Of a stretch of DNA of 64,000 bases, positions 4,451-56,605 are shown piece by piece. The stretch's first letter is position 1, and the number at the start of each line of letters is the position of its first letter. The notes below the pieces were generated by a model. That model did no database searches, was not told the origin of the DNA, and saw only the letters and a program-made list of their open reading frames with translations. This DNA comes from Scyliorhinus canicula (taxonomy: Eukaryota), in NCBI RefSeq assembly GCF_902713615.1, contig NC_052156.1, positions 29,167,287 to 29,231,286 of the forward strand, given 5' to 3'. Made by a program: the position numbers and the translations under genes.

Positions 4451-4818
4451 GGTGTTGAGTCATGTTGGGTTACAATTCCACCAGCGCCTCTTATTCACAT
4501 CAGTTTACACAGCGAATGCTTGGCAGCCTGACATCACCAGGGAGATGACCACCCAATACCACTTTATACCCAGTCACCGCACGTCCAGCCTGGCAGCAGG
4601 AGGTGGCCGATTAAAGAACTGGACCTTTTGCACCGTTTCTCAAAGCCTAGCCTAAGGGCACTGAGGCTAATGTGTGTTACCCTGCTACGGCCGCAGCTGG
4701 AATCAGCTAACTTTTTGTAATCCTTATATATAATATACTTTCACAGGACAGAGCTGATGGTAAATCCAAAAATTCTCCCTCCATGGGCTTCAATCGAATT
4801 AACCCAGCATTCAGCTAC

Positions 4819-5132
4819 TGATGCGACCATCAATTCACTCAAAGACACCAGTAGAAGCAAACCAAGGTTTTAATCAGCTGAGAACAGAGAACTGCCTGCA
4901 ACTATTACAATACCGTGGACTGCCTACAGGTCAACTGCTCTTTCTACTTCCTTTCAAGGGGGAGGAACCATGGGCGGAGCCTGTACATGCCCCAACATAC
5001 CCCCTGTGGGTGAAGCCACACAATGGCCCATAGGTGGAGCCCACAAGGTCAACAACACAACATAGCTGTAACACAATGGCAGAACATGATACTAATACAC
5101 TGGTGAATAGCTAGTACTATTCATTCACCACA
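4819..5132 (-). repeat. 3' LTR of Gypsy family A
   Basis: Direct repeat of 9220-9532, roughly 20+ differences by eye; adjacent to the PPT. Confidence 0.95.
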
Positions 5133-5176
5133 TTCACCCCCTGTTAAAAAAATGAGGTCCGGCGGGGGTGACGGGC

Positions 5177-8100
5177 TCATAAGTTCAGCAGGTCTGGCGC
5201 AAGGATTGTGCGCTGCGATCCCCGAAGCTCTGGTGTTGTTGTTGGTCTGGGTGTCGGGCTCATCCGTGCTGGCATCGGAAGTGGGGCCGGTGCGGGCACA
5301 GGCCTGGACTCTGGGAGCATCTCTTCTGGAGCTTCATTCCTATGGACCGGTGTGGCGGGCGGGAGGGAGCGCGGGAGCCATGTCGGGGCGGGGGCGCTGG
5401 ACATGGTAGGTTGGGTGGGATATAGTGGGGAGGCTGAGGTGGTGGTGGTGGAGCCTGCGGGCGCTAGGTTCGAGGGAGACGGTATCTTGTCGGCCATCGG
5501 GGTGTTCAACATAAGCATCCTGGGGGTTGGAGTGCACGAGCTGGACCCTCTCTACCAGAGGGTCGGTCATATGGCTCCTGATGTGTTTTCTGAGGAGGAC
5601 TGGTCCCGTTGTCTTCAGTCAGGATGGAAGCGAGGCCCCTGAAGGTAGCTCCCCTAGAAAAGCAAACAAGCGCTCATGAGGAGTCTCGTTCGTGACCATG
5701 CAAATGAGGGACCTGATAAGAGTGGAGCGCATCAGGGAGGATCTCCTGCCAGTGAGAAACTGGCAGATTCCTGGACCGCAGGGTCAGTAGGACGGTCTTC
5801 CAGACCGTCGCGTTCTCCCTCTCCACCTGCCCGTTTCCCCTGGGGTTGTAACTGGTAGTCCTGCTCGAGGCGATGCCCTTACTGAGCAGGTACTGACGCA
5901 GTTCATTGCTCATGAACGACGAGCCCTGGTCGCTGTGGACATAACTGGGGAAACCAAACAGGGTGAAGACACTATGCAGGGCTCTAATGACAGTGGATGA
6001 GGTCATATCGGGGCAGGGGATTGCAAATGGAAAGCGGGAGAACTCATCTATGATGTTGAGGAAATACGTATTGCGGTTATTGGAGGGGAGGGGCCCTTTG
6101 AAATCGATACTGAGGTGTTCAAAGGGCCGGGATGCCTTTACCAGGTGGGCCTTAGCCAGTCGATAGAAGTGCGGTTTACACTCCGCACAGATTTGGCAGT
6201 CCCTGGTCATAGCCCTGACCTCCTCGGTGGAGTAGGGCAGGTTGCGGGCCTTGATATAATGGACGAGCCGGGTGGCAGAGGTAATCGTGGATAGCCCGTA
6301 GTCGGTCACCTTGCGCGCTGGCGCATGTGCCGTGGGACAGGGCATCTGAGGGCTTGTTGAGCTTCCCAGGACGATATACTATATCGTAGTTATAGGTGGA
6401 GAGTTCGATCCTCCACCTCAAGATCTTATCGTTCTTGATTTTGCCACCCTGCGTATTGTCGAACATGAAGGCTACCAATCGTTGGTTGGTGACGAGGGTA
6501 AACCTCCTACCCACGAGGTAGTGCCTCCAGGGCCGCACGGCTTCCACGATGGCTTGGGCTTCTTTTTCGACCGAGGAGTGTTGAATTTCAGAGGTGGTGA
6601 GGGTGCGCGAAAAGAACGCTACCGGTCTGCCTGCTTGGTTGAGGGTGGCAGTGAGAGTGACCTCTGATGCGTCGCTCTCCACCTGGAAGGGGCAGACTCG
6701 TCCACCGCGCGCATCTCAGCTTTGGCGATGTCCTGCTTGATGCAGCTGAAGGCCTGGCGAGCCTCAGTTGCCAGTGGAAAGCTGGTGGCCTTGATTAGTG
6801 GCCACCACTAATCTTGGGCGGGCGGGCTTTGTCTGCATAATTGGGGACGCACTGGGCGTAATATGAAAAGAACCCAAGGCACCTCTTCAGGGCCTTGGGA
6901 CAGTGAGGGAGAGAGAGTTGCAGGAGGGGGCATATACGGTCAGGGTCGGGCCCTAGGACCCCGTTCTCCACGACGTAGCTGAGGGTGGCTAGTCTGGTTG
7001 TGTGGAAAATGCATTTCTCCTTGTTGTAGGTGAGATTGAGGGTTTGGGCGGTTTGGAGAAATTGGTGGAGGTTGGCGTCGTGGTCCTGCTGATCATGGCC
7101 GCATATGGTGACATTGTCCAAGTACGGAAATGTGGCCCGCAGTCCGTACTGGTCCACCATTTGGTCCATTGCTCTTTAGAACACCGAAACCCCATTCTTG
7201 ACGCCAAAGGGAACCCGGAGGAAATGGAAAAGGCGGCCGTCTGCCTCAAAAGCCGTGTAGTGGCGGTCCGCCGGGCGGATTGTGAGCCGGTGGTATGCAG
7301 ACTTCAGATCCACCGTGGAGAACACCCGGTAGTGTGCGATCTGATTCACCATGTTTGCAATCCGGGGAAGGGGGTACGCATCGAGTTGCGTATACCGGTT
7401 AATGGTTTGGCTGTAATCAACCACCATCCGGAACTTTTCCCCGGTCTTGACGACGACCACCTGAGCTCTCCAGGGGATATTGATGGCCTCGATGACACCC
7501 CCCTGCAAGAGACTCTGGACCTCGGACCTAATGAACGTCCTGTCCTGCATGCTATACCGCCTGCTTCTGGTGGCGACTGGCTTGTAGTCGGCGGTGAGGT
7601 TTGAGAAGAGAGGGGGAAGGTCGACTTTTAGGGTCTCGAGGCTGCATATGGTGAGTGGGGCAGGGGCCCCCCTGAACCTCAGGTTACATTGGAAGTCGAG
7701 TCCCAATAGGAGAGGAGCGCAGAGGTCTGAGAGCACATATAATTTAAAGTTAGCGTACTCAGGGTTGCTAGGGTTGTAGTAGTGCAGCCTTGGATTTGCA
7801 CCGAGTGCGACCCAGAGGCGAGGGAGATGGTTTGTTGCGCCGGGAAAATTGTAAGCAGCGTCTTACCATGTCCGGGTGAATGAAGCTCTCTGTGCTCTCG
7901 GAGTCGAAGAGGCAAGGCGTCTCGTGCCCGTTAACCCGGACGGCCATCGTGGAGCTCCGGAGGTGCTTGGGCCACGACTGGTCCAGGGTGACCGCGCTGA
8001 GCTGCGGGTAGCCGGCGGCGTGGTCGGAAGTGCTGGGACGGCCCCGCGATGACTGTCCATATTGATCATGCGCGTCAAGCGGCGTAGCAGATGGCGGCCA

Positions 8101-9196
8101 AGATGGTGGCCCCCATTGGTCGAGCGTGGCGGGCGGTGAGGAAAATGGCATCCAAGATGGTGGCCCCCATGGATCACACGTGGCCGGCCGCGTGGCGGAG
8201 GATGGCCAAGATGGCGGCCCCCATTTGTCGAGCGTGGCGGGCAGTGAGGAAGATGGCGGCCCCCATGGATCGCACGTGGCCGGCCGGGTGGGGGAGGATG
8301 GCCAAGATGGCAGCCCCCATGCGTCGCACGTGCTGCGAGGGCAGGAAGATGGCCACCCCCACTGATAGCACGAGGCTGATGACGTGTCTGCAGGGGGCGG
8401 AGTCGGCAGACACGCTGCCACACTGCGGGGTCTGCTGGCCTGTGAGTCTGAGGATCGGGCCTGTGAGTTCAAGTTCTTAGACCTGGCCAGGCAACTTTTG
8501 GCGAAATGTCCTTTTTTCCGCAGCTGCTGCAGTTCATGTTGGGGGCCGGGCAGTGCTGTCGGGGGTGTTGAGACTGGCCGCAAAAATAGCAGGGTAGCCC
8601 CCCCATGATGGGCGGGTGGCCGCGCGGCGCAGGCCTGGGGTAGTCTTTGGTCGGGGGCCCACGAAGGGGTCGGTGGTCAGCCTGGAATGCAGTAAGGCTC
8701 TGAAACGCAGCCACCAGAGAGGTGGCTAACGTTACCGTGTTGTCCAGGTCCTGGGCCCCCTTTTCGAGCAGGTGCTGTCTCACATAATTCGACTGGACTC
8801 CCGCCACGTAGGCGTCTCGGACGGTGAGTTCCATGTGCTGAATGGCCGTAATGGCCTGGTAATTACAGTTGCGTGCGAGGGCTTTGAGGTCACGTAGGTA
8901 GTCATCTAGCGACTCCCCGGGGCGCTGGCGGCATAGACCTCATTCACGGGCCGTACGTAGAGGCGTTCGAGCGTCGCGAGGGCGTCTGCGTATGAGGAGG
9001 CCTCGTCGAGCTGAACAGAAATGCGATGGCTCACCCGTGTGTGGAGGAGGCTCAGCTTCTGTTCATCAGTGACGGAAGGCGTGGAAGCGGCAGCGAGATA
9101 GGCCTTGAAGCATCAAAGCCAGTCCGAAAATTTTTATTTCACCTCCGCAGCCTGAGGATCGAGTTGCAGTCGATCAGGTTTGAGGGCTGATTCCAT
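5177..9196 (-). pseudogene. Disrupted gag-pol of Gypsy family A
   Basis: ORF fragments 8469-8834 (gag), 7768-8583 (linker/PR), 7176-7736 and 6795-7169 (RT, FPYLDNVTIC), 6176-6682 (RNase H), 5674-6345 (IN core), 5177-5570 (IN C-terminus); early stop after MESALKPDRLQLDPQAAEVK. Confidence 0.93.
8088..8360 (-). repeat. In-frame minisatellite (~54-bp units) encoding xDxWGPPSW repeats in the gag-PR linker of family A
   Basis: AAGATGG cores recur at ~8100, 8154, 8208, 8250, 8304, 8346. Confidence 0.9.
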
Positions 9197-9219
9197 AGTT
9201 GTCTTTAAGCTGATTAAAT

Positions 9220-9532
9220 TGATGCGACCATCAATTCACTCAAAGACACGAGTAGAAGCAAACCGAGGTTTTAATCAGCTTAGAACAGAGCCTACCTGCG
9301 ACTAGTACAATACTGTGGACCGCCTACAGGTCAACTGCTCTTTATACTTCCTTTCAAGGGGGAGGAGCCATGGGTGGAGCCTGTACATGCACCAACATAT
9401 CCCCTTGTGGGTGAAGCCACACAATAGCCCATAGGTGGAGCCCACAAGGTCAACAACACAACATAGCTGTAACACAATGGCAGAACATGATGCTAATACA
9501 CTGGTGAATTACTAGTACTTACTTTAACCACA
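9220..9532 (-). repeat. 5' LTR of Gypsy family A
   Basis: TATAAA on minus at 9341-9346, ATTAAA at 9270-9275; gag ATG follows a 23-nt leader. Confidence 0.95.
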
Positions 9533-9931
9533 GCTACTTCAATGAATTTGAGACAATTGTAGATTTTGTTTGGTTGATTTGAAAACACCCAGAGGCGATT
9601 ACAGGTTAGTGTGAGATGAAGAAGACCCCTTTGCCCCTATTTCCAAGAATGTCTCGCAAATCTTTCATCTGCTGATCTACTTGACACTCTTCCAAAATAA
9701 AGAAAGCCAATTCAAATATCGGAGCAAATAAAATTACTGTCGGGAAAGTGGGACCTTTGCAGAAGGCTAGCCCCTTAGTCTTCTATAAAGGATCTATCCA
9801 TTCTTAAAGGATGTTTCCTATCTGAGACCGTCTACACTGGTGGCAGCTCATATCAAGTAACAAAAACATTTTTGGTTCCCATTATTAAATGAGAGGAAAC
9901 TGGCATTGTTCACAGTTGTGAATTTCCCCCT

Positions 9932-10212
9932 TGATGTGACCATCAATTCACTAGACACGTGATTGGAAGTAAACTGTGGTTTTAATAGTCTTACAACTAA
10001 GCCAGCCTGCGACCAGAGGAACCGAGAGCAGGCTTACAGCTGCAGTGCTTTATACTTCCGGTTAGTGGGAGGAGCCATGGGCGGAGCCCAGTACAAACTC
10101 ATCATCTCCCCCTATGGGCGGAGCCGTGCAACGGCTCACATACAGGGCCCACAAGGACACAATACATGCAAGGCAATACAGTGTGAATTACGATGGCATA
10201 TAATTCATCACA
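9932..10212 (-). mobile_element. Solo LTR of a related Gypsy family
   Basis: TGATGTGACCATCAATTCAC...TCACA termini homologous to the family A LTR; TSD CCCCT at 9927-9931 and 10213-10217. Confidence 0.9.
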
Positions 10213-13624: not shown

Positions 13625-16600
13625 CCATTTTTTTTTAAAATTGAGTTTTTGGTATATAAAACAAATATAAATATGAACAAACAATAGGAGATGAAGAGAA
13701 AAAAACAAAATTAAAAAGTAAAACAAACTATTTACACATAGATCGGCTTCAACTATTTACATTCATCCAACAGTTTCTTTTCTTTTTGCTCCTTATAGTA
13801 TTTGCAGTGATGATTGTGGTCCCCTACGTTTCGCTGCCCACCGGGTTTTCTCAACTTTTTTTCCCCTTTGGTTCAGGTTGTTGCACATTCAACCCCCCCC
13901 CCCCCCCCCCAAAACCGGGTCTCATGCTTCTCCTGTTGGGCTACCACCACTGGGCTGGTTGAATATTTATTTGGTGGGAATGAGAGTGCTGCCCTGGCTA
14001 GGGCCCGGAGGAAGGTCCCTCTGCAGGAGTTCCCCTCCATAAGCACCCACTCGGTTCCTTTATCTACCCCTTTACTCTCTCCGCAGTCGCTGCCCAGTAG
14101 TAAATTGTAGGTTTGGGATGGCTAGGACACCCATGGATCTCGTTCTCTGCAGTACTCTCTTTAGGATCTTTGCATTGTTCCGACCCCACACAAACGCCAT
14201 AACCAGTTTGTCCGATGAATTGAAAACGGCCATGTGAATGTAGATCGGGATGGATCTAAACATAGAACATCGAAAAATACAGCACAGAAGAGGCCCTTCA
14301 GCCCACGATATTGTGCCAAACTTTTGTCCGAGATTAAGAACAAATTAATCTACACCCCATCATTCTACCGTAATCCATGTACCTATCCAATAGCCGCTTG
14401 AAGGTCCCTAATGTTTCCGACTCAACTACTTCCACAGGCAGTGCATTCCACGTTCGCTGCTAGCTTTCTTTAATATTGTATTTCCTCTTCAGGAGAGGAA
14501 CCTACGCAGTCCGTTAATTTTGATTGTTTAAATCCTCCACGCCAGTAAGAGTGGGAGTGTGTCCCATCTCTGCAGGTCCTTTTTTACTTCCTCTGTCAGG
14601 CTGGTCAGGTTCCACTTGTGGATCCTGTCCAATCATGAGCAATTTGGATTCCCAGGTAACAGAATTTATGTCGGACCTGTTTAAACAGCAGCCCCTCCAG
14701 CTCAAGAAAGCTTCAAACTCTTTCAAGAGCGCCATGATTCCTTCCATGCTGTTTTGCGGGTCCGAGATGTAGAGGAGCAGGTCATCCGCATAGACCAAGG
14801 CTCTGTGCTCTCTGTCTCCTCTCTGGATCCCGTTCCAATTCTTTGCTGGCCCAAGCGCGATCGCTAGTGGTTCGATCACTGGGGCGAACAGCAGCGGTGA
14901 TAACGGGCACTCCTGCCTTGTGCCTCTGTGCAGCTAGAAGTAGCTAGAGCTGGTGGTATTTGTCCGTACCCTCGCCGTGGGAACGTTGTACAGGATTTTC
15001 ACCGGGCGGTGAACCCTGTTCCTAGCCCAAACTGCTCCGTACCTCTATGGGGTACTTCCACTCTACTCTGTCGAAGGCCTTTTCAGCTTCCAGGGAGACG
15101 ATCACCTCAGGTGTTCTCTCCCCAGATGGGGCCTTGATCATGTTGAGCAGACACCTGATGTTCGATGTTAACGGACTACCCTTGACAAAGCCAGTCTGTT
15201 CTTCTGTTATGACCTCTGGTACACAGTCTTCCAGCCTTTTGGCTAGGATCGTGGCCAGTATTTTTGTGTCTGCGTTTAGCAGCGAGATGGGTCTTAGTCT
15301 TCTTTTTTTTAAATTTAGAGTACCCAATTAATTTTTTCCAATTAAGGGGCAATTTAGCCTGTTCAATCCACCTACCTTGCACATCTTTGGGTTGTGGGGG
15401 CGAAACCCCCGCAAACACGGGGAGAATGTGCAAACTCCACACGGACAGTGACCCAGAGCCGGGATCGATCCTGGGACCTCAGCGCCGTGAGACCGCAGTG
15501 CTAACCCACTGAGCCACCGTGCTGCCCCGTCTTTGTCTTTTTTAGGTATCAGCGAGATTGAGGCTTGTACTAGCTTAGGCGGCAGGGTGCCCCTCGCCAG
15601 CAAGTCTGTGAACATCTCCCACAAGTGTGGGGCCAGTGCTATCGCGAATGTTTTGCGGAAGTCCGCCGGGAAACCATCCGGTCCAGGCGCCTTCCCCACC
15701 TGCATGGAGATAATACTCTCCATGACCTCTCCCAGTTCTAACAGTGCTTACAGGCTCCGTATCCTGACTGGCATGACCAGTCCATCAAGGGACAGCATTA
15801 TCCCCGAGCCTCCCGCTGGGGGCTCCAAGGTGCACAGCCCCTGGTAGAAGGGCTAAAATGCCTTGTTGACGTTATCCGGCTCCGTTATTAATTTGCCTTT
15901 GCTCTCCCTAATCTGGGCTATTTCCCTCGTGGCTGTCTGCCTTCTCGGCTAGTGGGCCAGCAGGCGGCTAGCCTTGTCTCCGTGTTCATAAGGGCCCCCT
16001 TGTCTGGCGGAACTGGAATCTCACACCATTTCTGTACAGCTCAGCCTTCACTTTATTAAATTCAGCTCGGCGCTTGACCTTGTCAGCCCCAGTGTCCCGA
16101 TAAATGCGGATCTTGTGACCTTCCCAGCTACAGCTTTTGCATTGTCTGGCCCAACGCAGGATTCTTTCCCGGTTCTGGTACCATTGCATCTTTGCAATTA
16201 TCACCCTCGGCTGTTCCTGGCTTTGGGCTTTGGTCGAAGCAACCGGCATGCTGTCGATTTCTGGTGGGTTGGGGAAGCTGTCCCTTCCCACCAGATTGCC
16301 CAGCTTTTGGGCCACATAGTCTGTGGGGTTCCTACCTTCGATCCACTCCAGTAGGCCCATGATTCATAGGTTTTGCTGCCTTGACCGGTTCCCTGGTCCT
16401 CAAATTTTCAGCTCAGGTTCCCTTGTGTCGCGACCAGCCTTGCCGCCTCCTTTTTCAGGGCGACAATCCGGTCGCCCTGGTCAGTTGCTGCCCTCTCCAG
16501 TTCTTTAACTGTTTCCTCCTGGGCTTTCAGTCGCTTTTCGGTATTGTCCAGAAGCACCTGCATGGTCGCCGGAGCTTTGGTCACCGCAACCTTCACTGCA

Positions 16601-17391: not shown

Positions 17392-19136
17392 ATTTGTGTT
17401 TATGGATGCTGTATAAGAAAACCGCGCCTTTAAATTTTACTTGCATCTGATTCAGAACTCCAGGTGTTTCATCTGTTACATAATTTGAAGTATTGGCTTT
17501 GATTTCTTAAGTGTGATTTGACAATAGCCACTCACTTGCTACGGTGTGAGATGGAATGAAAAGTTTGGTGCAATCTGAATCTTTGATCAGCATGAACACA
17601 TAGATCTGAATTATTCCAGTTTGGATCGCTTTGAATTTAGACGCAATCTAGAATCTACTCCCGACTAAAGGATGATCGAGAAACAACTTGTTCCATAATT
17701 GAATTCAAGGTGATTGAAACTTTCAGGAATGTAAAAGCCATCTATTTGAAAAGGGAAATTAAGATTCATTTTCCATTTTTATTCCCGGATAATGATTCCA
17801 CATATATTTAGTTTCATCCAGTGCTATTATGAATGTAACAGACCTCCTTAGTGGGGGAAGGGCATCAGAAAAAGTTGTTACATTTGTGCACTCATAAAAG
17901 CCTTTATTATATGTGTGCTCTTAAGTGAATAACAAGCTTATAGAGAACTTATTCTTTCGAGTTGAATGGAGTCATCCTTATTTTAATAATCCTCAAACTT
18001 ATTTTTACTTGACATTGCTGGGAACATCCTCACCCATATAATTACTGGATATGTCTGAGGATTTGCTTAAACCACTTGGTGTTCAATTTCAGGGCTGTAC
18101 ACAAGACAGGGTGGAAGAGCCAAAACTCGTCAAACAAGGCTAGTTTGGCAGAACTCATACAGGCTCTGTCAGGACCAGCCCCATATACAAAGTATTGTTC
18201 TTGCAAATTTCAAGAAAAAAAACTGCACAAAATTCACCTTCGCTTGCTTCTACAGCCATTAAATTGCTATTTACAGTTTGAGCTTTTTTAAATGAAATAG
18301 CTAATTCAGGTTAATACAGAACAACATAAAATCAATTTACCAGAGAAAAGTTAATCTCAGAATGTTTTGCATTTGCATACTGATGCTACCTAATGTTCCC
18401 ACTACAGTATTTGGGAACACATTATTGAAAGTTAGTGCATTGGAGGCATTTAGTGGCAGTAAAAAGGTACTGCAAGAACTTTTGAATTTTAACTTGTATT
18501 GTGGGAATCTTAACTTTTGATTCAATGATCCTCAGTTTTCTTCATCACACACATATTTTCCCTCAAGGTCAATTTTCCAACCTCCATAACACTGTCTGTC
18601 TCTACCGTTACTTCCACCAGTACCCTGGTCCCATCCCTATAGGTTTGGCTTCTCCATTGCTCTCCCCAACAGGCCTCCTTGTCTCAAACCATCCAAAATT
18701 ACAGCTCATTCAAATTACCAAATTCACACCATTACCTGGAAAACGTTCCATACTGTCACCAATGTTTTAATAGCTCTGGTGTCATAGGAAATCAACTTCA
18801 AGATTCTCATCTTTGATTCAACTTTCTCCATGGCCTTCCCCTATCCTACCTCATCAATCTCCTTCAATCTCATTTCCTGCTCTTCTCAATGCCAAGTTAC
18901 TTCTGGTCAGTCTCTTCGATACTGCTCTTTACTACTTATGCTTCTCTCCTCTAGAAGTTGATCTCTATCTTCTTACTTTGCTTTCAAAAACCTAAACATT
19001 TATGATCTGAGCATCTACCTGCACCAGCACAGTGGTTAGCACTATTGCTTCACAGCGCCAGGGTTCCAGGTTTGATTCCTGGCTTGGGTCACTGTCTGTG
19101 CGGAGTCTGCACGTTCTCCCCGTGTGTGCGTGGATT

Positions 19137-19331
19137 TGAAAATGAAATGAAATGAATGAAAATGAAATGAAAATCGCTTGTCACGAGTAGGCTTCAAATG
19201 AAGTTACTGTGAAAAGCCCCTAGTCGCCACATTCCGGCGTCTGTTCGGGGAGGCTGTTACGGGAATCGAACCGTGCTGCTGGCTTGCCTTGGTCTGCTTT
19301 CAAAGCCAGCGATTAGCCCAGTGAGCTAAAC
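19137..19331 (-). mobile_element. tRNA-derived SINE lacking the V-domain, (CATTT)n tail
   Basis: A box TAGCTCACTGGG, B box GGTTCGATTCC; shares gtggcgactaggggcttttcacagtaacttcat with the host SINE tail. Confidence 0.8.
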
Positions 19332-23427: not shown

Positions 23428-23713
23428 TGATGAACCATCAATCGAACGCGAGACAAGTTGCTGTACAAAAGTTAGGCTTTAATAAGCTAGAAGTTAGCCC
23501 TGCGGTCGACTACAGTAAATAGACGACCGCCGGGCGTTCTGGTTATTTATACCTCGCTCTGGAGGCGGGGTTAACTCAGCCTCACGACCAATCGGAGAGC
23601 CATCACATGACTGGTCTCAACCAATCGGTTGAGAGGCACATGACCGACCAGGGCCAATGGTAAGCCAGTGTTCTGCACCAATGGCAGACAGCTACGCAAA
23701 TCATACCACCACA
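23428..23713 (-). repeat. 3' LTR of Gypsy family B
   Basis: Direct repeat of 27986-28271, adjacent to the PPT. Confidence 0.96.
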
Positions 23714-23899
23714 TTCACCCCTTGCGGAGAAGCCGGGGGGGTAATCAACGAGAGCCGGGGGGGAGGGGGGGAGGTTGGGAGAACTGGTGGTATGAGTAGC
23801 AGCCAGAGAAGGGAGAAAAAAATGTTTTGGCTTCCCACTGGCCCAGACAATTAACAATAGTACAAAATGTCCCAACAAGGTCCATGGAGTTGTTGTAAA

Positions 23900-26800
23900 T
23901 TAAATAGACTCGATCAGTCTTTTCGTGGCCCGTGACGTCCTGGCAGACCGCCGCAGTGGAGTTGGTGACGTTGGTTCAGCCGATGGTGGTGGTTCCGCTG
24001 ACGTCCTGGAGTCCGGGAGCGATGGTCCTTGAACAGTCTCCGTCACCCAGGCTGGCGGTGGAGACGCCATGGATGGGGAAGGGGTGGCCAGGGTGGGGCG
24101 CTGGGGGAAAAAAAAAACAGGGGGGGGGGGCTCTGTGGCGAAGGGGGGGGGGGGGGGAGGAGGCCGCACAACAGCGGGTGCCAGGTCCCGGAGGGAGACC
24201 GTGTCCTACCGACCGTCGGGGTACTCCACATACGCATACTGCGGGTTAGCGTGGAGTAACTGGACTTGTTCAACCAACGGGTCGGACCTGTGCGCCTGCA
24301 CATGCTTCCGGAGCAAGATGGGTCCAGGGGCGGCCAGCCACGTCGGGAGAGGGGATCCGGAGGATGACTTCCTGGGGAAAACAAGACGACGTACATGAGG
24401 TGTCTGATTTGTTGCGGTACAGAGGAGTGAGCGGATAGAATGTAGGGCATCGGGGATCACCTCTTGCCATCGGGAAATAGGGAGATCTCTGGACCGGAGG
24501 GCCAGTAGTATGGTCTTCCAGATGGTACCATTCTCCCGCTCGACCTGTCCGTTACCCCGAGGGTTATAGCTGGTCGTCCTGCTAGAGGCAATGCCCCTGT
24601 TGAGCAGGAATTGACTCAGTTCATCGCTCATAAATGAGGACCCCCGATCGCTATGTATGTATGCAGGGTAGCCGAACAGGGAGAAGATGGAGAGGAGGGC
24701 CTTAACGACGGTCGATGTGGTCATGTCGGGGCAGGGAATGGCGAAGGGGAAGCGGGACTATTCGTCGATTACCGGCAGGAAGTAAATGTTGCGGTTGCTA
24801 GAGGGAAGGGGCCCTTTGAAGTCAATGCTGAGACGTTCGAAGGGGCGGGATGCTTTGATCAGATGTGCGCGCTCAGGGCGGTAGAAGTGTGGTTTGCACT
24901 CTGCGCAGATGTGGCAGTCACGGGTTACTGTCCTGACTTCCTCGATGGAGAAAGGCAGGTTGCGGGCCTTAATGAAATGGTAGAAACGGGTCACCCCTGG
25001 ATGGCAGAGGTCAGCGTGGAGGCGGTCTATCTGCGTGCTGGCGCAGGTACCGCGGGACAGGGCATCAGGAGGCTAATTGAGCTTCCCAGGACGATACAAG
25101 ATCTCATAGTTGTACGTGGACAACTCGATCCGCCACCGTAAGCTCTGTCATTCTTAATCTTGCCCCTTTGTGCATTATCAAACATGAAGGCTACTGACCG
25201 TTGGTCTGTGAGGAGGGTAAACCTCCTGCCAGCCAAATAGTGCCTCCAATGTCGCACAGCTTCGACAATGGCCTGGGCTTCCTTTTCCACAGAGGGGTGG
25301 TGGAGTTCGGAAGCCTGGAGGGTTCTGGAGAAGAAGGCCACAGGTCTGCCCGCTTGGTTCAGGGTGGCCGCCAGAGCTACTTCTGATGCGTCGCTCTCGA
25401 CCTGAAAGGGGAGGGACTCGTTGATGGCACGCATCGTGGCCTTTGCGATGTCCGCTTTGATGCGGCTAAAGGCCTGGCAGACCTCTGTCGACGGCGGGAA
25501 GGTCGTGGTTTGAATGAGGGGACGGGCCTTGTCAGCGTAATTGGGAACCCATTGGGCATAGTAAGCGTAGAAACCCAGGCAGCGTTTGAGGGATTTGAGG
25601 GTATTGGGAAGAGGGAGTTCCATCAGGGGGCGCATGCGTTCGGGGTCGGGGCCTATCACTCCGTTACGCACTACGTAGCCGAGGATGGCTAGACGGTCGG
25701 TGCTAAACACGCACTTATCCTTACTGTATGTGAGGTTAAGGAGTTTTGCGGTTTAGAGGCATTTCCGGAGGTTGGCGTCATGGTCCTGCTGGTCGTGGCC
25801 GCAGATGGTGACATTATCGAGATACGGTAAGGTAGCCCGTAATCCGTACTTGTCGACCATTCGGTCCATCTCCCGTTGGAAGACCGAGACCCCATTTGTG
25901 ACACCAAATGGAACCCTAAGGAAGTGGTAGAGGCGCCCATCAGCCTCGAACGCGGTGTACTTGCGGTCACTCGCGCGGAGGGGGAGCTGGTGATAAGCGG
26001 ACTTAAGGTCCACAGTGGAGAAGACCTTGTATTTCGCTATATCATTTACCATGGCGGAAATACGGGGCGAGGATACACGTCCAGTTGCATAAACCGGTTG
26101 ATGTTCTGGCTATAGTCGATGACCATCAGGTTTTTCTCCCCAGTCCGGACCACCAGCACTTGGGCTCGCCAGGGACTGTTGCTGCCCTCGATGACCCCTT
26201 CCTTCAGCAACCTCTGGACCTCGGACCTGATGAAGGTCCGGTCCTGGGCGCTGTACCGCCTGCTCCGTGTCGTGACGGGTTTGCAATCGGGGGTGAGATT
26301 AGCAAACAAGGAGGGGGGGTCCACTTTGAGGGACGCGAGGCTGCAGACAGTGAGGGGGGGTATAGGGCCGCCGAATTGAAAGGTCAGGCTCTGCAGGTTG
26401 CACTGGAAGTCCAGTCCTAGGAGTGCCGGTGCGTAAAGGTCAGGGAGGACAAGGACTTTGTAATTTTTTAAAACCTTCCCTTGGACCGTGAGGTCCGCGA
26501 TGCAGCTAACCCGATTTTGTGTTTTACAGGATGGACAGGGAGCGCGCAGCGTCTTACCATGGCAGGGTGAACAAAGCTTTCCGTGCTCCCAGAGTCCAGC
26601 AGGCAGCCCGTCTCGTGGCCGTTGAGGTGGATCAGCGTTGTTGTTTTGGCGAGCGTGCGTGGCCGTGACTGGTCGAGTTGAATGGTCGCGAGCCGTGGAG
26701 AAGAACCATCGTCGCAGTTGTCGTCGGCCGAGTAGTAGCTGGCAGAATCTTGCGTGCCAGTCCAGGAAGGTGGTGCCCAGTACCCGCACGTGGAGTCGGG

Positions 26801-27961
26801 GCCCCAAGATGGAGGCGCCCAGGACCCGCACGTGGAGTCGGCGCCCCAAGATGGCGGCGCCCAGGACCCGCACGTAGAGTCGGCGCCCCAAGATGGCGGC
26901 GCACGCGGGGCCCTCGTGGTTGTGGGGGACGGGGTTAGCGGTGCCGGCGGGCCGACCGGAGCGGCTGAGAGCGGGGGCAGAGAGGCGCGCAGGCCAGGCG
27001 TAGGGGCCGGGGGCAGCGAGGAGAGAGTTGCGCGGTGCGCTGGGAGGGCCCGGAGGAGGGGGAGGCGTGCAGGCCGGGCGCAGGGGTCCGGGGGGGGGGG
27101 GGGGGGGGGGGGAAAGAGATTGGCGCTGCGTACTGGAAGGGCCAGCAAGGGCCCGGAGTGGGGGATCCCCGGTCGCTGTGCGGTGCAGCAGCGACCAATT
27201 TGGCCTGGCAGACGGATGAAAAGTGGCCCTTCTTCCCGCAGCTCTTACAGAGGGCGGAGCGGGCCGGGCAGCGCGGGCGAGGGTGTTTCGCGAACCCACA
27301 GAAATAGCAGCAGGGCCCCGTGGACTTGTCGGGGCGTCCCGCGGCGCAGGCCTGAGGGAGGTCGGGAGCGGCGGATGGCGGTGGGGAAGCGTGCCAGGAG
27401 GTCCAGGGTGCTGCAGCGCGGCTGGGGGCATAGGCTCGGGCGTTTAAATCAGCGACCTCCAGGGAGGTGGAGAGAGTCCGTGCCTCAGTTAGGCTGAGGT
27501 CGTCTTTCTCCAGCATCCGCTGGCGGATAGCGGCAGACTGCATCCCAGCCATGTAAGCATTTCTAATCTCTTCTGATCTCTAATCAGAAGTTCCATGTGC
27601 TCCGTGGCTGAAACTTCCTCCCCAGGACAGCGAGGGCCTGGTAAAATTGGTCTAATGACTCACCGGGGAGCTGTCGTCTGGTAGCCAGCAGATGTCGGGC
27701 GAATACTCTGTTGACCAGTTTAAGAAACTGTCCATTCAGCTTAAGCATGGCCGCATCGTAATCTTTTTCCTCCCTGATCAGCGCGTAGGCTGCTGTGCCC
27801 ACGCTGGAGTGGAGGATGTGAAGCTTCTGTGCCATGGTGGGGGGGCTATTTGCGGACGCCAGGTATCCCTCGACACATGCCAGCCAATGTTGAAAGATTT
27901 CTGAAGCGTTCTGAGTTTGCGGGCTGATGCGGAGGCATTCGGGCTTGAACCGGAGCTCCAT
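23900..27961 (-). pseudogene. Disrupted gag-pol of Gypsy family B
   Basis: ORF fragments 27584-27967, 26935-27552, 26468-27148, part of 26046-27431, 25753-26052, 25027-25710, 24758-24994, 24206-24724, 23900-24169. Confidence 0.94.
26770..26905 (-). repeat. In-frame 42-bp tandem repeat x3 encoding CGSWAPPSWGADST in family B
   Basis: CAAGATGG(A/C)GGC at 26805, 26847, 26889. Confidence 0.92.
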
Positions 27962-27985
27962 CTTCAAAATTCTAGCTTATTAAAT

Positions 27986-28271
27986 TGATGAACCATCAAT
28001 CGAACGCGAGACGAGTTGCTGTACAAAAGTTAGGCTTTAATAAGCTAGAAGTTAGCCCTGCGGTCGACTACAGTAAATGGACGACCGCCGGGTGTTCTGG
28101 TTATTTATACCTCGCTCTGGAGGCGGGGTTAACTCAGCCTCTCGACCAATCGGAGAGCCGTCACATGATTGGTCTCAACCAATCGGTCAAGAGGCACATG
28201 ACCGACCAGGGCCAATGGTAAGCCAGTGTTCTGCACCAATGGCAGACAGCTATGCAAATCATACCACCACA
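27986..28271 (-). repeat. 5' LTR of Gypsy family B
   Basis: TATAAA on minus 28104-28109, GC box, multiple CCAAT boxes, ATTAAA at 28036-28041. Confidence 0.96.
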
Positions 28272-32879: not shown

Positions 32880-35800
32880 TTTTTTATAAATGTTTTTTAT
32901 TGAGTTTTTGAACAAAGTATATTTGCCGTTATGTACAGAGGGGCAGCACGGTAGCATTGTGGATAGCACAACTGCTTCACAGTTCCTGGGTCCCAGGTTC
33001 GATTCCGGCTTGGGTCGCTGTCTGTGCAGAGTCTGCACGTTCTCCCCGTGTGTGCGTGGGTTTCCTCTGGGTGCTCCGGTTTCCTCCCACAGTCCAAAGA
33101 TGTGCAGGTTAGGTGGATTGGCCATGATAAATTGCCCTTAGTGTTGGGTGGGGTTACTGGGTTATGGGGATAGGGTGGTGGTGTTGACCTTGGGTAGGGT
33201 GCTCTTTCCAAGAGCCGGTGCAGACTCGATGGGCTGAATGGCCTCGTTCTGCACTGCAAATTCAATATGATATATGTATATATAGAAGAGAGAGAGAGAG
33301 AAGGGCACACACAAACATATCACAAAAAAAAAGTAATAATAAGAAATATAAAATCAAATCAAGTAACTGATAAGGTATTATACACCAATTCAAAAGCAGC
33401 AACTCTGTACACTTGGCAAAATTATTTACAACACACCAGCAGGCATCTGTTTGGGGGGCGGGTGTATACATTTGGGTGCCGGAGAAACAATTACAGAGGG
33501 CAACACTCGAATGGGTCTGGTGTTGGTGTTGTCACTTGCTTCTCACGGACGGATTTCGCTGCCGTTGTCGTCTCGCGCTCACCTCCGCTTCAGCCGTTCC
33601 TCCCGTATTCTCCTTTTTCTCTGTTCCTGTGTTTGCCAAGTTTGTTATCGTTTCCCTGCCTCCCCACCTACCTGGTTCTCCTCTATTGTTCCCCCCCCTT
33701 CTATCTCTCATGCTTTGGCTACTTTCCCCTGATTCTTGGCTACCTGGCTATTCTTCTGCTTGTTCGTTGGCCACAAACAGGCCCCGAAACAATTGGGTGA
33801 ATGGCTCCCACGTTCTGTGAAAGCCGTCATCTGACCCTCGGATGGCAAATTTGATTTTCTCCATTTGGAGAGATTCCGAGAGGTCGGATAGCCAGTCTGC
33901 AGCTTTGGGTGGTGCTGCTGACCACCAGTCGAACAGGATTCTGCGGCGGGCAATCAGGGAGGCAAAGGCAAGGGTGCCCGCCCTCCTCCCCTGGAATAGA
34001 TTTGGCTGGTCTGAAACCCCGAAGACCGCCACTTTTTGGGCATGGCTCCACCCTCACCCCCACCACTTTGGACATTGTCTCGAAGAAGGCTATCCAGTAC
34101 CCCGCAAGTCTAGGGCAAGACCAGAACATGTGGGTGTAGTTGGCCGGGCCTCCTTGACACTGTTCACATCTATCCTCCACCTCCGGGGAGAACCTACTCG
34201 TACGGGTTCTTGTTAAGTCGGCTTTATGTACCACTTTTAGTTGCATCAGGCTGGGCCTTGCGCAAGTGGAGGTGGAGTTGACCCTATGCAGTGCTTCGCT
34301 CCAGAGTCCCCACCCTATTTCAATCCCCAGGCCCTCCTCCCATTTCTTTCTTGTTCCCTCCAGTACGGTGTCGGCCCTTTCTACCAGTCAGTCATACACG
34401 GCGCTACAGTTTCCTTTATCTAGGATGCTTGCGCCCGGTAACTCTTCCAGTAATGTCTGTCGTGGCGGTTGTGGATATGTCTCTGTCTCCTTTTGTAGGA
34501 AGTTTTTGAGTTGCAGGTACCTTAGCTCATTCCCCCTGACTAGCTGGAATTTTTCCGTCAGTTCGTCCAGTGTTGCGATCCTGCCGTCCGTGTATAGGTC
34601 CCTGACTCAGTGTCCCTCCATCCTGTCCCCACCTTTTGAAAGTGGTGTCAAGTCAGTGCTGGTGTGAACCTATGGTTGCTGCAGATGGGATCTTTGTCCG
34701 ACATTTTAGTCAGGCCAAATTGCTGCCGTAGTTGGTTCCAGGACTGGAGGGTAGCTATCACCACCAGGCTGCTGGGGTGTTTTTTGAGTGGGGATAGGAG
34801 TGCTGACCTCCGGAGGGAGGTCCCCATGCAGGAGGCCTCTTCCGTGCGCACCCATTCGGCTTCTGGCTCCTTGATCCATCCCCTTATTCGCTCGGCCGTC
34901 GCCGCCCAGTGGTAGAATTGTAGGTTTGGGAGGGCTAGACCCCCCCCGGATTTTGTTTTTGTAGGATCTTCTTCGGGATCCTAGCATTCTTCCCCCCCAC
35001 CCCCATACGAACACCATGATTAGTTTGCCCAGCGCTTTGAAAAAGGCCTTGGGGATGTAGATCGGGATGGATCTAAGTAGGAAGAGGGCAGCACGTTCAT
35101 TTTGATCGTCTGGACTCTCCCCACGAGGGAGAGTGGGAGTGTGTTCCATCTTTGCAGGTCCTTTTTTATTTCCTCTGTCAGACTGGTGAGGTTCCATTTG
35201 TGGATCCCTTTCCAGTCATGGGCCATTTGGATCCCCATGAATTTGTATCGGGCTTGTTTAAACGGCAGTCCCGTTAGTGCTGCCCCCCTACTTGCGGGTG
35301 TACTGGGAAGATCTCGCTTTTGCTCATGTTGAGTTTGTAGCCCGAGAAGGCGCCAAGCTCTTTCAGGAGCACGATGATTCCGTCCATGCTGTTTTGTGGG
35401 TCCGGAATGTAGAGGAGCAGGTCATCTGCATAGAGTGAGACTCTGTGCTCTCTGCCACCCCTTTGGATCCCCCTCCAGCTTTTTGCTGCTCTGAGCGCAA
35501 TTGCTAGTGGCTCGATCGCTAGAGCAAACAGCAGCGGGGACAGTGGGCATCCTTGTCTGGTGCACCTATGCAACTGGAAGTATCGGGAGTTGGTGTTGGT
35601 TGCCCGTACGCTCACCATGGGTGCGCTATATAGGAGTTTTACCCAGGAGGTGAATCCTGTTCCAAGCCCGAACCACTCCAGTACCTCTATGAGGTATTTC
35701 CATTTGACTCTGTCGAAGGCCTTTTCTGCGTCTAGGTAGACGATCATCTCTGGTGTTCTCTCCCCGGACGGGATCATTATCACGTTCAGCAGGCACCTGA

Positions 35801-36605
35801 TGTTTGAAGTAAGCTGTCTACCTTTGACAAAGCCCGTCTGGTCCTCTGCGACCACCTCAGGTACACAGTCTTCTAGCCTTTTGACTAGAATTTTGGCATC
35901 TGCATTCAGCAGTGAGATGGGTATGTTTGACCCACATTCCGTTGGATCTTTATTTTTCTTAGATATCAGCGAGATTGAGGCCTGTGCTAGCGTGGGTGGC
36001 AGAGTGCCACGAGCCAGCAAGTCTCTCGCAGGTGACCATCTCTTGCAGGTACGGGGCCAGTGCTGTCGCAAATTTTTTGTAGAAGTCCGCCGGGAGCCCG
36101 TCTAGTCCCGGCGCCTTCCCTGCTTGCATGGAGCTAATGCTGTCCATGATCTCTCTCAGTACTAGTGGTGCTTCCAGGCCCCGTTTTCTGCCCTCCCCCA
36201 CGACTGGTATGTCCAGTTCATCAAGCAACCATTTCATCCCGGACTCCCACCTTGGGGGCTCTGAGGTGTACAGCCCTTGGTAAAAGGCCCTGAAGGCTTT
36301 GTTGATCTTTTCTGGTTCTGTTTCTAATGTGCCTCTGGTATCCCTGATTTGTGCAATTTCTCTGGTGGCTGCCTGCTTTCTCAGCTGGTGTGCCAACAGG
36401 CAGCTGGCTTTGTCTCCGTGTTCGTACAGGGTCCCAAGTGCCAGGAGCTCTACGGTCGGGGCCTCAGAGTATTTACGGTCTATCTCCAGTATGGAGTCGA
36501 CCAGTTGCTGCTCAGCCGCCCTTTCCTCCCTATCCCTTCGCGCTTTGAAAGCGATGATTTCCCCTCTTAGTACGGCCTTAGAACATGGAGGGTGAGACCT
36601 CCTCT
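32880..36605 (-). mobile_element. 5'-truncated L1/Tx1-clade LINE
   Basis: RT QGCPLSPLLF and YADDLLLY; C-terminal CEQC..HMFWSC; 3' UTR with AATAAA and A-rich end; SINE nested at 32940-33268. Confidence 0.92.
32940..33268 (+). mobile_element. Full-length HE1-like V-SINE
   Basis: A/B boxes, V-domain, CR1-type tail. Confidence 0.9.
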
Positions 36606-36699
36606 CCGACCCAGGGCACAGGTTTAAAGTTGGCTGTCAGTGGCATGCGCAGCTGCATGGTTGCCTTGCAAGCTGCAGTAATGGTGTTGCATTCCATAT

Positions 36700-52980: not shown

Positions 52981-53085
52981 GTTAACAAGAGTAACGAGAT
53001 GTTTATAGTTGGGTTCTATTTTAATCCTTAATCACATGGCATAATCAGTGAATTTCTCATATGCCCATTAGTTGCTAATGTTTTG

Positions 53086-53403
53086 GGCAGCCCAGTAGCA
53101 TAGTGGTTAGCACTGTGGCTTCACAGCACCAGAGTCCCAGGTTCGATTCCCTGCTGGGTCACTGTGCGGAGTCTGCATGTTCTCCCAGTGTCTGTGTGGG
53201 TTTCCTCCGGGAGCTCCGGTTTCCTCCCACAGTCTAAAGACGTGCAGGTGTGGTGGATTGGCCATGCTAAATTGTCCTTAGTGTCCAAAAAAGATTAGGA
53301 GGGGTTATTGGGTTAAGGGGATAGGGTGGAAGTGAGGGCTTAAGTGGGTCAGTGCAGACTCGATGGGCCAAATGGCCTCCTTCTGCATTGTATGTTCTAG
53401 GTT
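53086..53403 (+). mobile_element. Full-length HE1-like V-SINE
   Basis: A/B boxes, V-domain, tail. Confidence 0.9.
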
Positions 53404-56149: not shown

Positions 56150-56605
56150 GTCAGAGGTAGGTTCTTTACCCAGAGAGTAGTGGGGGCATGGAATGCACTG
56201 CCTGCGGTAGTAGTTGAGTCGGAAAAGTTAGGGACCTTCAAGCGGCTATTGGATAGGTACTTGGATTAGGGTAAAATAATGGAGTGTAGGTTAACTTCTT
56301 AAGGGCAGCACGGTAGCATTGTGGATAGCACAATTGCTTCACAGCTCCAGGGTCCCAAGTTCGATTTCGACTTGGGTCACTGTCTGTGTGGAGTCTGCAC
56401 ATCCTCCCCGTGACTGCGTGGGTTTCCTCCGGGTACTCCGGTTTCCTCCCACAGTCCAAAGATGTGCAGGTTGGGTGGATTGGCCATGAAAAATTGTCCA
56501 AAATTCTATGATTAACCTAGGACAAAAGTTCGGCGCAACATCGTGGGCCGAAGGGCCTGTTCTGTGCTGTATTTCTCTATCTATCTATCTATCTATCTAT
56601 CTATA
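56150..56605 (+). mobile_element. CR1 3' end with nested HE1-like SINE (56302-56511) and (CTAT)n tail
   Basis: Matches the reverse complement of 14262-14450 apart from the SINE. Confidence 0.85.

Follow-up and report, generated by a model that had tools for sequence, protein, structure and literature searches.

A perfect fold-back is located at the primer-binding site (PBS) of two Ty3/gypsy LTR retrotransposons of Scyliorhinus canicula, and self-priming of these elements, in one form or another, is highly probable. The form proposed here is Tf1-like: cutting of the element's own RNA at AUUAA|A would free a capped primer some 42 nt in length, and we give this form a probability of about 0.8. 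The window analyzed is a stretch of 64,000 nt (GCF_902713615.1, NC_052156.1, positions 29,167,287–29,231,286, forward strand). It contains element A, element B and a solo LTR of a third family, family C, all on the minus strand.

Element A is a decayed Ty3/gypsy LTR retrotransposon with TG...CA ends at positions 4819–9532, and is bounded by the 5-bp target site duplication (TSD) GCTAC (4814–4818 and 9533–9537). Its 5′ LTR (9220–9532) shows 92% identity to its 3′ LTR (4819–5132). A TATA box, TATAAA, is at 9341–9346, and the start of transcription is predicted near 9315 (TATA+31). The LTR tract TAAGCTGATTAAA at positions 9270–9282 is the predicted 3′ end of the self-primer and terminates in the hexamer ATTAAA (9275–9270); the 3′ LTR has one change within its tract. 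From the misbuilt copies described below, the cut is predicted to lie between 9271 and 9270. The 50-nt loop at 9220–9269 consists of a short part of R plus U5, displays the conserved RCC as its first bases and is the predicted template of strong-stop DNA. At the U5 end there is an 8-bp hairpin, AATTGATG-GTCG-CATCAATT (9217–9236), which resembles the U5-IR stem. The sequence TTTAATCAGCTTA is at the PBS position (9206–9218), with a 1-nt spacer (A at 9219) and without TGG. The gag region (8511–9196) starts with an ATG at 9196 and displays stops and frameshifts, followed by two CCHC knuckles. The pol fragments (5472–7757) are broken and are in the order RT, RNase H, integrase, and a polypurine tract (PPT), AGGGGGTGAA, at 5133–5142 precedes the 3′ LTR.

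Element B, of a second family, is found at positions 23428–28271 with the TSD ATACG/ATATG. Its LTRs (27986–28271 and 23428–23713) are 97% identical. The LTR tract at 28036–28050 also has a terminal ATTAAA, with a TATA box at 28109; the PBS position (27970–27984) is a 15-bp complement of the tract, and the gag ATG is at 27961. Both gag and pol are broken, with the same order of RT, RNase H and integrase as in element A. The two elements are similar in size (approximately 4.7–4.8 kb), and each has short TG...CA LTRs, a 5-bp TSD and a polypurine tract. Tandem repeats of 42–54 nt are located between gag and protease, at 8048–8359 in element A and 26762–26919 in element B, and encode proline-/glycine-rich runs. 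The family C solo LTR is at positions 9932–10212 and has the perfect TSD CCCCT; its tract, TAAGACTATTAAA, is at 9993–9981. Other repeats in the window are two non-LTR retrotransposon copies with RT and zf-RVT matches (14699–16000 and 33827–36636, 74%–82% alike) and copies of a tRNA-type SINE family at 1068–1283, 19013–19137, 32928–33144, 53084–53297 and 56290–56506.

The element A arm at 9218–9206 (minus strand, TTTAATCAGCTTA) is exactly complementary to 9282–9270, and thus the 13-nt stem claimed in a preliminary description of this DNA is present as described. It stops at 13 nt, with no pairing beyond. The element B stem is 15 nt in length (27970–27984 with 28036–28050) and is in matching register. 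The geometry in the two families was said to be identical, with a partner 50 nt from the end of LTRs that can barely be aligned, and this holds in each respect: both downstream arms begin one base (A) past the LTR end CATCA, the 50-nt distance is found in elements A and B, and alignment of the two LTRs is limited to 28 nt around their end. Perfect inverted repeats of at least 13 nt with a loop of 100 nt or less are found just twice in the 64 kb, at these two positions, and 30 block shuffles of the window gave a mean of 0.13. As the downstream arm lies 1 nt past the 5′ LTR end, it occupies the PBS position.

The family C solo LTR had been noted to carry TTTAAT at offset 49, which is correct (tract at 9981–9993), and from this the sequence downstream of a full-length copy's LTR had been predicted. 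A genome search with the solo LTR gave 41 matches, and 30 loci, chosen by LTR similarity alone, were retrieved. These comprise nine 5′ LTRs, eleven 3′ LTRs, seven solo LTRs with TSDs and three that are unclassified. All nine 5′ LTRs are followed by A-TTTAATAGTCTTA, the complement of the LTR tract, as predicted, and none of the nine displays the normal TGG that would have spoken against the prediction. The junction of an LTR end with ATTTAAT has 10,443 matches in the genome, compared to none for the reversed control. Among the first 30 junction loci the tract is 47–52 nt upstream in 28, and bases 7–13 change jointly on both arms; the genome patterns fixed PBS positions 1–6, so that just positions 7–13 are informative there. 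Patterns for the PBS variants TTTB and TTTAB gave 311 and 652 matches, respectively, and among the 652 are families with the PBS TTTATT and a tract that ends in AATAAA. The other matches to these two patterns were not accepted as new families, as they are decayed copies, flanks of solo LTRs or the opposite strand of a palindromic hairpin. No AGTAAA family is present among the PBS-variant loci seen. TGG was found at none of 84 junctions, 66 of which were selected by pattern. By sequence, then, the elements do not appear to belong to the tRNA-primed class, where the PBS starts with TGG and is complementary to the tRNA 3′ end.

Selection on an RNA duplex had been proposed from two families, and it is well supported by covariation over 33 family-level stems, 18 from this genome and 15 from other hosts. 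In an alignment of 25 family representatives, 98.1% of the cells are paired and nine of the 13 pairs vary on both sides; the covariation score is 0.572 vs. 0.124 in shuffles, and controls in which the arms were slid are 24%–47% paired. The 33 stems were placed by an anchor, AAA then R-S-Y, which was chosen blind to the PBS and is present in 33 of 35 clustered families. Positions 7–13 pair at 0.92 in the 18 stems of this genome and at 0.90 in the 15 of other hosts. When partners are swapped between families the values are 0.49 and 0.53, and none of 10,000 swaps reaches the observed pairing. Since the 33 stems are different, a fixed tRNA cannot follow them. The fixed spacing that had also been claimed is correct within this genome (46–52 nt) but does not extend to the other hosts, where it ranges from 23 to 65 nt.

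The other-host set consists of 87 loci from metagenome/MAG contigs, which are the source of every fold-back seen outside this genome. Forty-six loci were examined; three have too little upstream DNA and 11 have no gag start, which leaves 32 usable loci. The fold-back adjoins the LTR end or the gag start in 29 of these, with loops of 23–65 nt, and is absent from three; 15 of the 29 come from one assembly. The length of the inverted repeat (12–16 bp) and its register are kept across hosts in which pol is 50%–70% identical. Two loci (L216:4983–5001 and L224:4984–5000) display a duplex of 17–19 bp that reaches the gag start codon and may also affect translation, and another (L262:149–246) has the PBS-like tract twice, 56 nt apart, ahead of gag. 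Five animal-type retrotransposons (L292, L293, L295, L296 and L298) are on MAG contigs, those of L293, L295, L296 and L298 from GTDB; these bacterial MAGs most likely contain host contamination.

Among named proteins, those of sharks and rays are nearest (76%–84% identity in pol). They are followed, at 59%–67%, by relatives from corals and anemones, from a tunicate and nematodes, and from numerous contigs of marine metagenomes; there is a sea cucumber gag as well. A scan of IMG/VR found no relatives, a search for gag homologs among longer proteins gave no match, and an Rfam search gave nothing above noise. The ESM Atlas returned generic gag clusters. In the PDB the nearest solved RT is that of Ty3, a match that does not place the clade.

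In folding models of the leader, the duplex has a pairing probability of 0.75 or more in 27 of 33 families, and each of the three test sequences forms it at minimum energy. A close competitor exists in family A, where U5 can pair with the PBS and leader as a long hairpin (9200–9250), and it is possible, by this modeling, that the hairpin and the primer duplex form a switch. A stem-loop near the PBS that is similar to U5-IR is found in the families of this genome, where the hairpin was itself the search pattern; its folding support is mixed, and is weak in other hosts. There is also a palindrome across the predicted start at 9290–9335, and comparable palindromes in other families (e.g. 28058–28092), with arms in U3 and R. 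It could fold only at the 3′ end of the RNA, just ahead of the poly(A) hexamer.

The LTR tract usually terminates in a poly(A) hexamer, which the preliminary description did not mention. The hexamers of the 33 stems are ATTAAA (15), AATAAA (8), GTTAAA (5) and others (5), and the PBS changes in step with the variant. Two families with other hexamers (L212 with GTTAAA and L214 with TTTAAA) have a separate AATAAA or ATTAAA within the loop. Overlap of the tract with the poly(A) signal thus appears to be common and not required. In most families that show a TATA box, 59–65 nt separate it from the tract downstream. Elements A and B have an initiator-like motif that contains or adjoins TATA+31, and this spacing is the basis for predicting that transcription starts upstream of the tract by about 30 nt. 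Reads from four RNA runs of the same species showed no sharp ends for the start, the poly(A) site or the cut site, and U3 is covered too. Five reads start at 9270, in one run only, while 13 start at an unrelated place. The reads span the LTR-PBS junction, and the signal in three single-end runs is mainly from the element strand if the usual strandedness is assumed.

In the proposed mechanism, transcription would start about 30 nt upstream of the tract, as suggested by the TATA/initiator spacing and by the tail ends described below. The tract would then anneal to the PBS and loop out approximately 50 nt, a pairing that covariation demonstrates. A single cut before the last A of the hexamer, at a position suggested by misbuilt copies, would free a 3′ end; the cutter is probably the element's RNase H, by analogy with Tf1. 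RT would copy the loop back to the cut to give strong-stop DNA, and this would jump to the short stretch between the hexamer and the poly(A) tail at the 3′ end of the RNA. The resulting cDNA would extend 2 nt past CA (CA|AT), which matches AA|TG at the end of the polypurine tract. With the leader as primer, a copy of it would be made during plus-strand synthesis, just as a primer copy is retained on Tf1 cDNA (PMC11042837). As a side effect, the duplex may conceal the 5′ LTR's poly(A) signal, and the copy in the 3′ LTR, which has no partner, would stay free. An error may also occur in which strong-stop DNA bends back to its own beginning and takes the primer as template, so that the primer is lost. 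The second jump would then fail and a single LTR would be integrated. A broader reading has roughly even odds. It holds that a widespread non-chromovirus lineage of animal Ty3/gypsy elements, found in sharks and rays, corals and anemones, tunicates, echinoderms and nematodes, takes as primer a capped leader from its own RNA, some 42 nt long and cut in the hexamer; that the duplex doubles as a silencer of the 5′ poly(A) site; and that relics of the intermediates are preserved in the host genome, among them solo LTRs that entered it as single LTRs and did not arise by recombination.

Genomic copies that look like frozen intermediates of reverse transcription were found with two patterns in which LTR-A-PBS is continued by the reverse complement of the leader. 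The patterns, which excluded tails shorter than 22–23 nt, gave 33 and 27 matches (60 in total) and the controls none; 57 of the 60 loci were retrieved, and 20 of them have an intact upstream LTR. In 12 of the 20 the tail stops close to the predicted start, no more than 12 nt short of it and no more than 1 nt past it. One stops 24 nt short of it, and seven run past it, five by 6–14 nt and two by more than 100 nt. On account of these seven, an exact stop of every tail at the start site was rejected. The ends cluster 35–55 nt from the hexamer end, near the predicted start. No tail of the 20 is 23–29 nt long, where geometric nulls expect about three to five, and for the distribution of tail ends a uniform null gives 5e-10; the lengths used in these tests were partly read by hand. 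Many tails resume afterwards in gag or pol. For the tails that overrun by about 10 nt, copying of the R arm by fold-back was considered as an origin, but in L124 and L132 it was rejected, since these two match genuine U3 sequence.

Read in the inverse direction, the misbuilt copies display a tract-T-TGATG joint, which is the predicted junction of primer and cDNA. By itself the joint can also be formed by a template switch through the 13-nt identity. In four loci (L154, L155, L164 and L165) the U5 copy reaches the last A of the hexamer exactly and then continues in gag via a 5–8 nt match, and in L112, L118 and L133 the U5 end is by eye at this A too. A further 14 LTRs have the insertion TTGATG-N-A between the hexamer and U5, where N tracks the LTR end of the family itself. 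There are thus at least 18 U5 copies that end at the hexamer's last A, 14 of them solo-type LTRs. A search for the insertion without that A gave one genome match, which is not such an LTR, and one match in the control; a loose control pattern for the insertion was discarded as noise (152 matches vs. 42 in its control). Since Tf1 RT adds untemplated bases (PMC11042837), the extra base might likewise lack a template, which could shift the cut by one, to a point after the hexamer. All 14 insertion LTRs are without PPT and PBS, and 12 have perfect TSDs, whereas ordinary LTR matches are solo in at most 10 of 30. The tract-T-TGATG joint is also found in TSD-bounded inserts at 16 of the 57 loci. Among these 16 are L165, a 574-nt chimera with LTR ends on either side, and two inserts (L150 and L166) with U3 ends on both sides. 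Other loci stop 6–34 nt into the tract or leader, as is expected after a normal jump.

Several of these observations bear on other explanations. In the geometry described for Tf1, Tf2 and Tj1 (PMC7175516 and PMC4600332), transcription would start at or near the first base of the tract, the primer would be 12–13 nt, and the upstream TATA box and initiator would not be the working promoter for full-length RNA. This is improbable here. Three misbuilt copies (L113, L122 and L126) do end at the 5′ end of the tract, the search patterns are blind to tails shorter than 22–23 nt and the RNA reads gave no start; however the position of the TATA box, the initiator-like motif near TATA+31 and the clustering of tail ends all point to a start farther upstream. 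It is somewhat less probable still that the duplex does no more than mask the 5′ LTR's poly(A) signal, which would allow full-length RNA to be made, with priming left to another primer, a host small RNA or a protein. AATAAA or ATTAAA terminates 23 of the 33 stems, the partner is found solely behind the 5′ LTR, and the spanning of the LTR-PBS junction by RNA reads fits such masking. The partner, though, is always 1 nt past the LTR end, which is needless for occlusion. Ten of the 33 stems have another hexamer (some by decay), L212 and L214 have their separate signal within the loop, and occlusion gives no account of the U5 copies ending at the last A of the hexamer.

The primer could instead be the tract copy of the 3′ LTR, at the 3′ end of the RNA or in a second RNA, with the same cut in place of a capped 5′ leader. 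The 3′ LTR RNA contains an identical tract, and a full U3 precedes the tract-T-TGATG joint in several misbuilt copies. This U3 could come from a later jump, however. A cut in the 3′ copy at the hexamer would leave the first strand transfer with nowhere to land, and a 5′ primer agrees with tails whose limit is the predicted start; this origin is very unlikely. Maintenance of the inverted repeat at the DNA level by template switching or gene conversion, with no RNA function and with the misbuilt copies as repair products, is largely refuted and has hardly any probability left. Three copies (L113, L145 and L158) have the appearance of a simple inversion of the loop that separates the arms, a product that DNA repair could yield. 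On the other side, this process would leave the elements without any primer site, and it does not fit the conserved length and register of the repeat in hosts with such divergent pol. An event in a genomic 5′ LTR should moreover leave the PBS, which is missing from all 14 insertion LTRs.

If self-priming by the capped leader is correct, a large animal lineage joins the short list of retroelements that work without a host tRNA, with a geometry unlike that of Tf1, i.e. a long capped primer, a cut in the poly(A) signal and a very short transfer region. Such elements would escape silencing by tRNA fragments. Annotation that requires a tRNA PBS misses them, and more than 10,000 junctions are present in this genome alone. 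One structure is thereby offered for two old problems of LTR elements, the source of the primer and the ignoring of the 5′ poly(A) site. With the misbuilt copies, genome sequence by itself may serve to locate primer ends and cut sites. They also suggest that a small share of solo LTRs were born solo, which bears on the use of solo LTRs as records of recombination.

With respect to classification, the pol order PR-RT-RH-IN, the TG...CA LTRs, the PPT and the TSDs are those of Ty3/gypsy elements, and the PBS is complementary to the element's own 5′ LTR sequence, as in the Tf1/sushi group. The chromodomain, SH3_Tf2-1 and Retrotrans_gag have no Pfam match at E 0.01 in two full-length relatives (P0123 and P0110), and the chromodomain and SH3_Tf2-1 are likewise absent from the window pieces. 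Tf1 itself has a weak chromodomain. The elements would seem to work like Tf1 yet lack the domains by which chromoviruses are recognized. Twelve SH3_Tf2-1 loci were retrieved from this genome (L305–L316); the 10 of them that have an RT match (22%–33% identity) display integrase upstream of RT, as in Gmr1-type elements.

Cigr-1 elements have short LTRs, one open reading frame of about 1,200 codons and an echinoderm-like gag. The relatives found here, including one from a tunicate, have single open reading frames of approximately 1,150–1,300 aa and LTRs of about 150–310 nt, and are thus similar to Cigr-1 in the short LTRs and the single gag-pol frame of about 1,200 aa, a likeness of description only; the window copies are broken. 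Perhaps the clade is Cigr-1, which we offer as a lead only. The Mag lineage has a double CCHC gag and a 5-bp TSD, both of which are found here. Mag and CsRN1 elements are tRNA-primed, and CsRN1 has a CHCC gag and a 4-bp TSD that are not seen here. The LTR start TGTGGTG does fit the CsRN1 motif TGTGGYG (PMC3601003). The Cigr-1 clade of Ty3/gypsy, from Ciona, is also present in molluscs (PMC6238403), and the clade comparison drew in addition on PMC8220671 and PMC3670739. A search of the literature, apart from subscription papers and Repbase, turned up neither a report of self-priming for this lineage nor one of a primer with a poly(A) signal at its end; Butler 2001 or the Repbase entries may already note such cases.

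Self-priming has been described for the Tf1/sushi group, including vertebrate sushi elements and plant Tcn1 (PMC6317226, PMC4600332, PMC7175516, PMC5341516 and PMC6934838). The elements of this study resemble Tf1 and Tf2 of Schizosaccharomyces pombe, Tj1 and the Tf1/sushi group in a PBS that is complementary to the element's own LTR transcript, in the lack of a tRNA and in a primer freed by cleavage, which is predicted here (PMC7175516, PMC4600332, PMC6317226 and PMC11042837). Elements of this group also have a stem-loop at the U5 end, for which the hairpin of element A is a candidate counterpart, and can keep a primer copy on the cDNA. Self-priming has been predicted from LTR-PBS complementarity in the TAR elements Houba and Osr-1 as well (PMC6317226). 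These differ in being plant elements of the Ty1/copia superfamily, and thus the mechanism arose more than once. Compared to the Tf1/sushi group, the two full-length relatives show no chromodomain, SH3_Tf2-1 or Retrotrans_gag match, and gag has two CCHC knuckles. In Tf1 the transcript's first 11 bases are the primer (PMC7175516), whereas the tract described here is predicted to be about 30 nt inside the RNA, usually ends in a poly(A) hexamer and would be cut within that hexamer.
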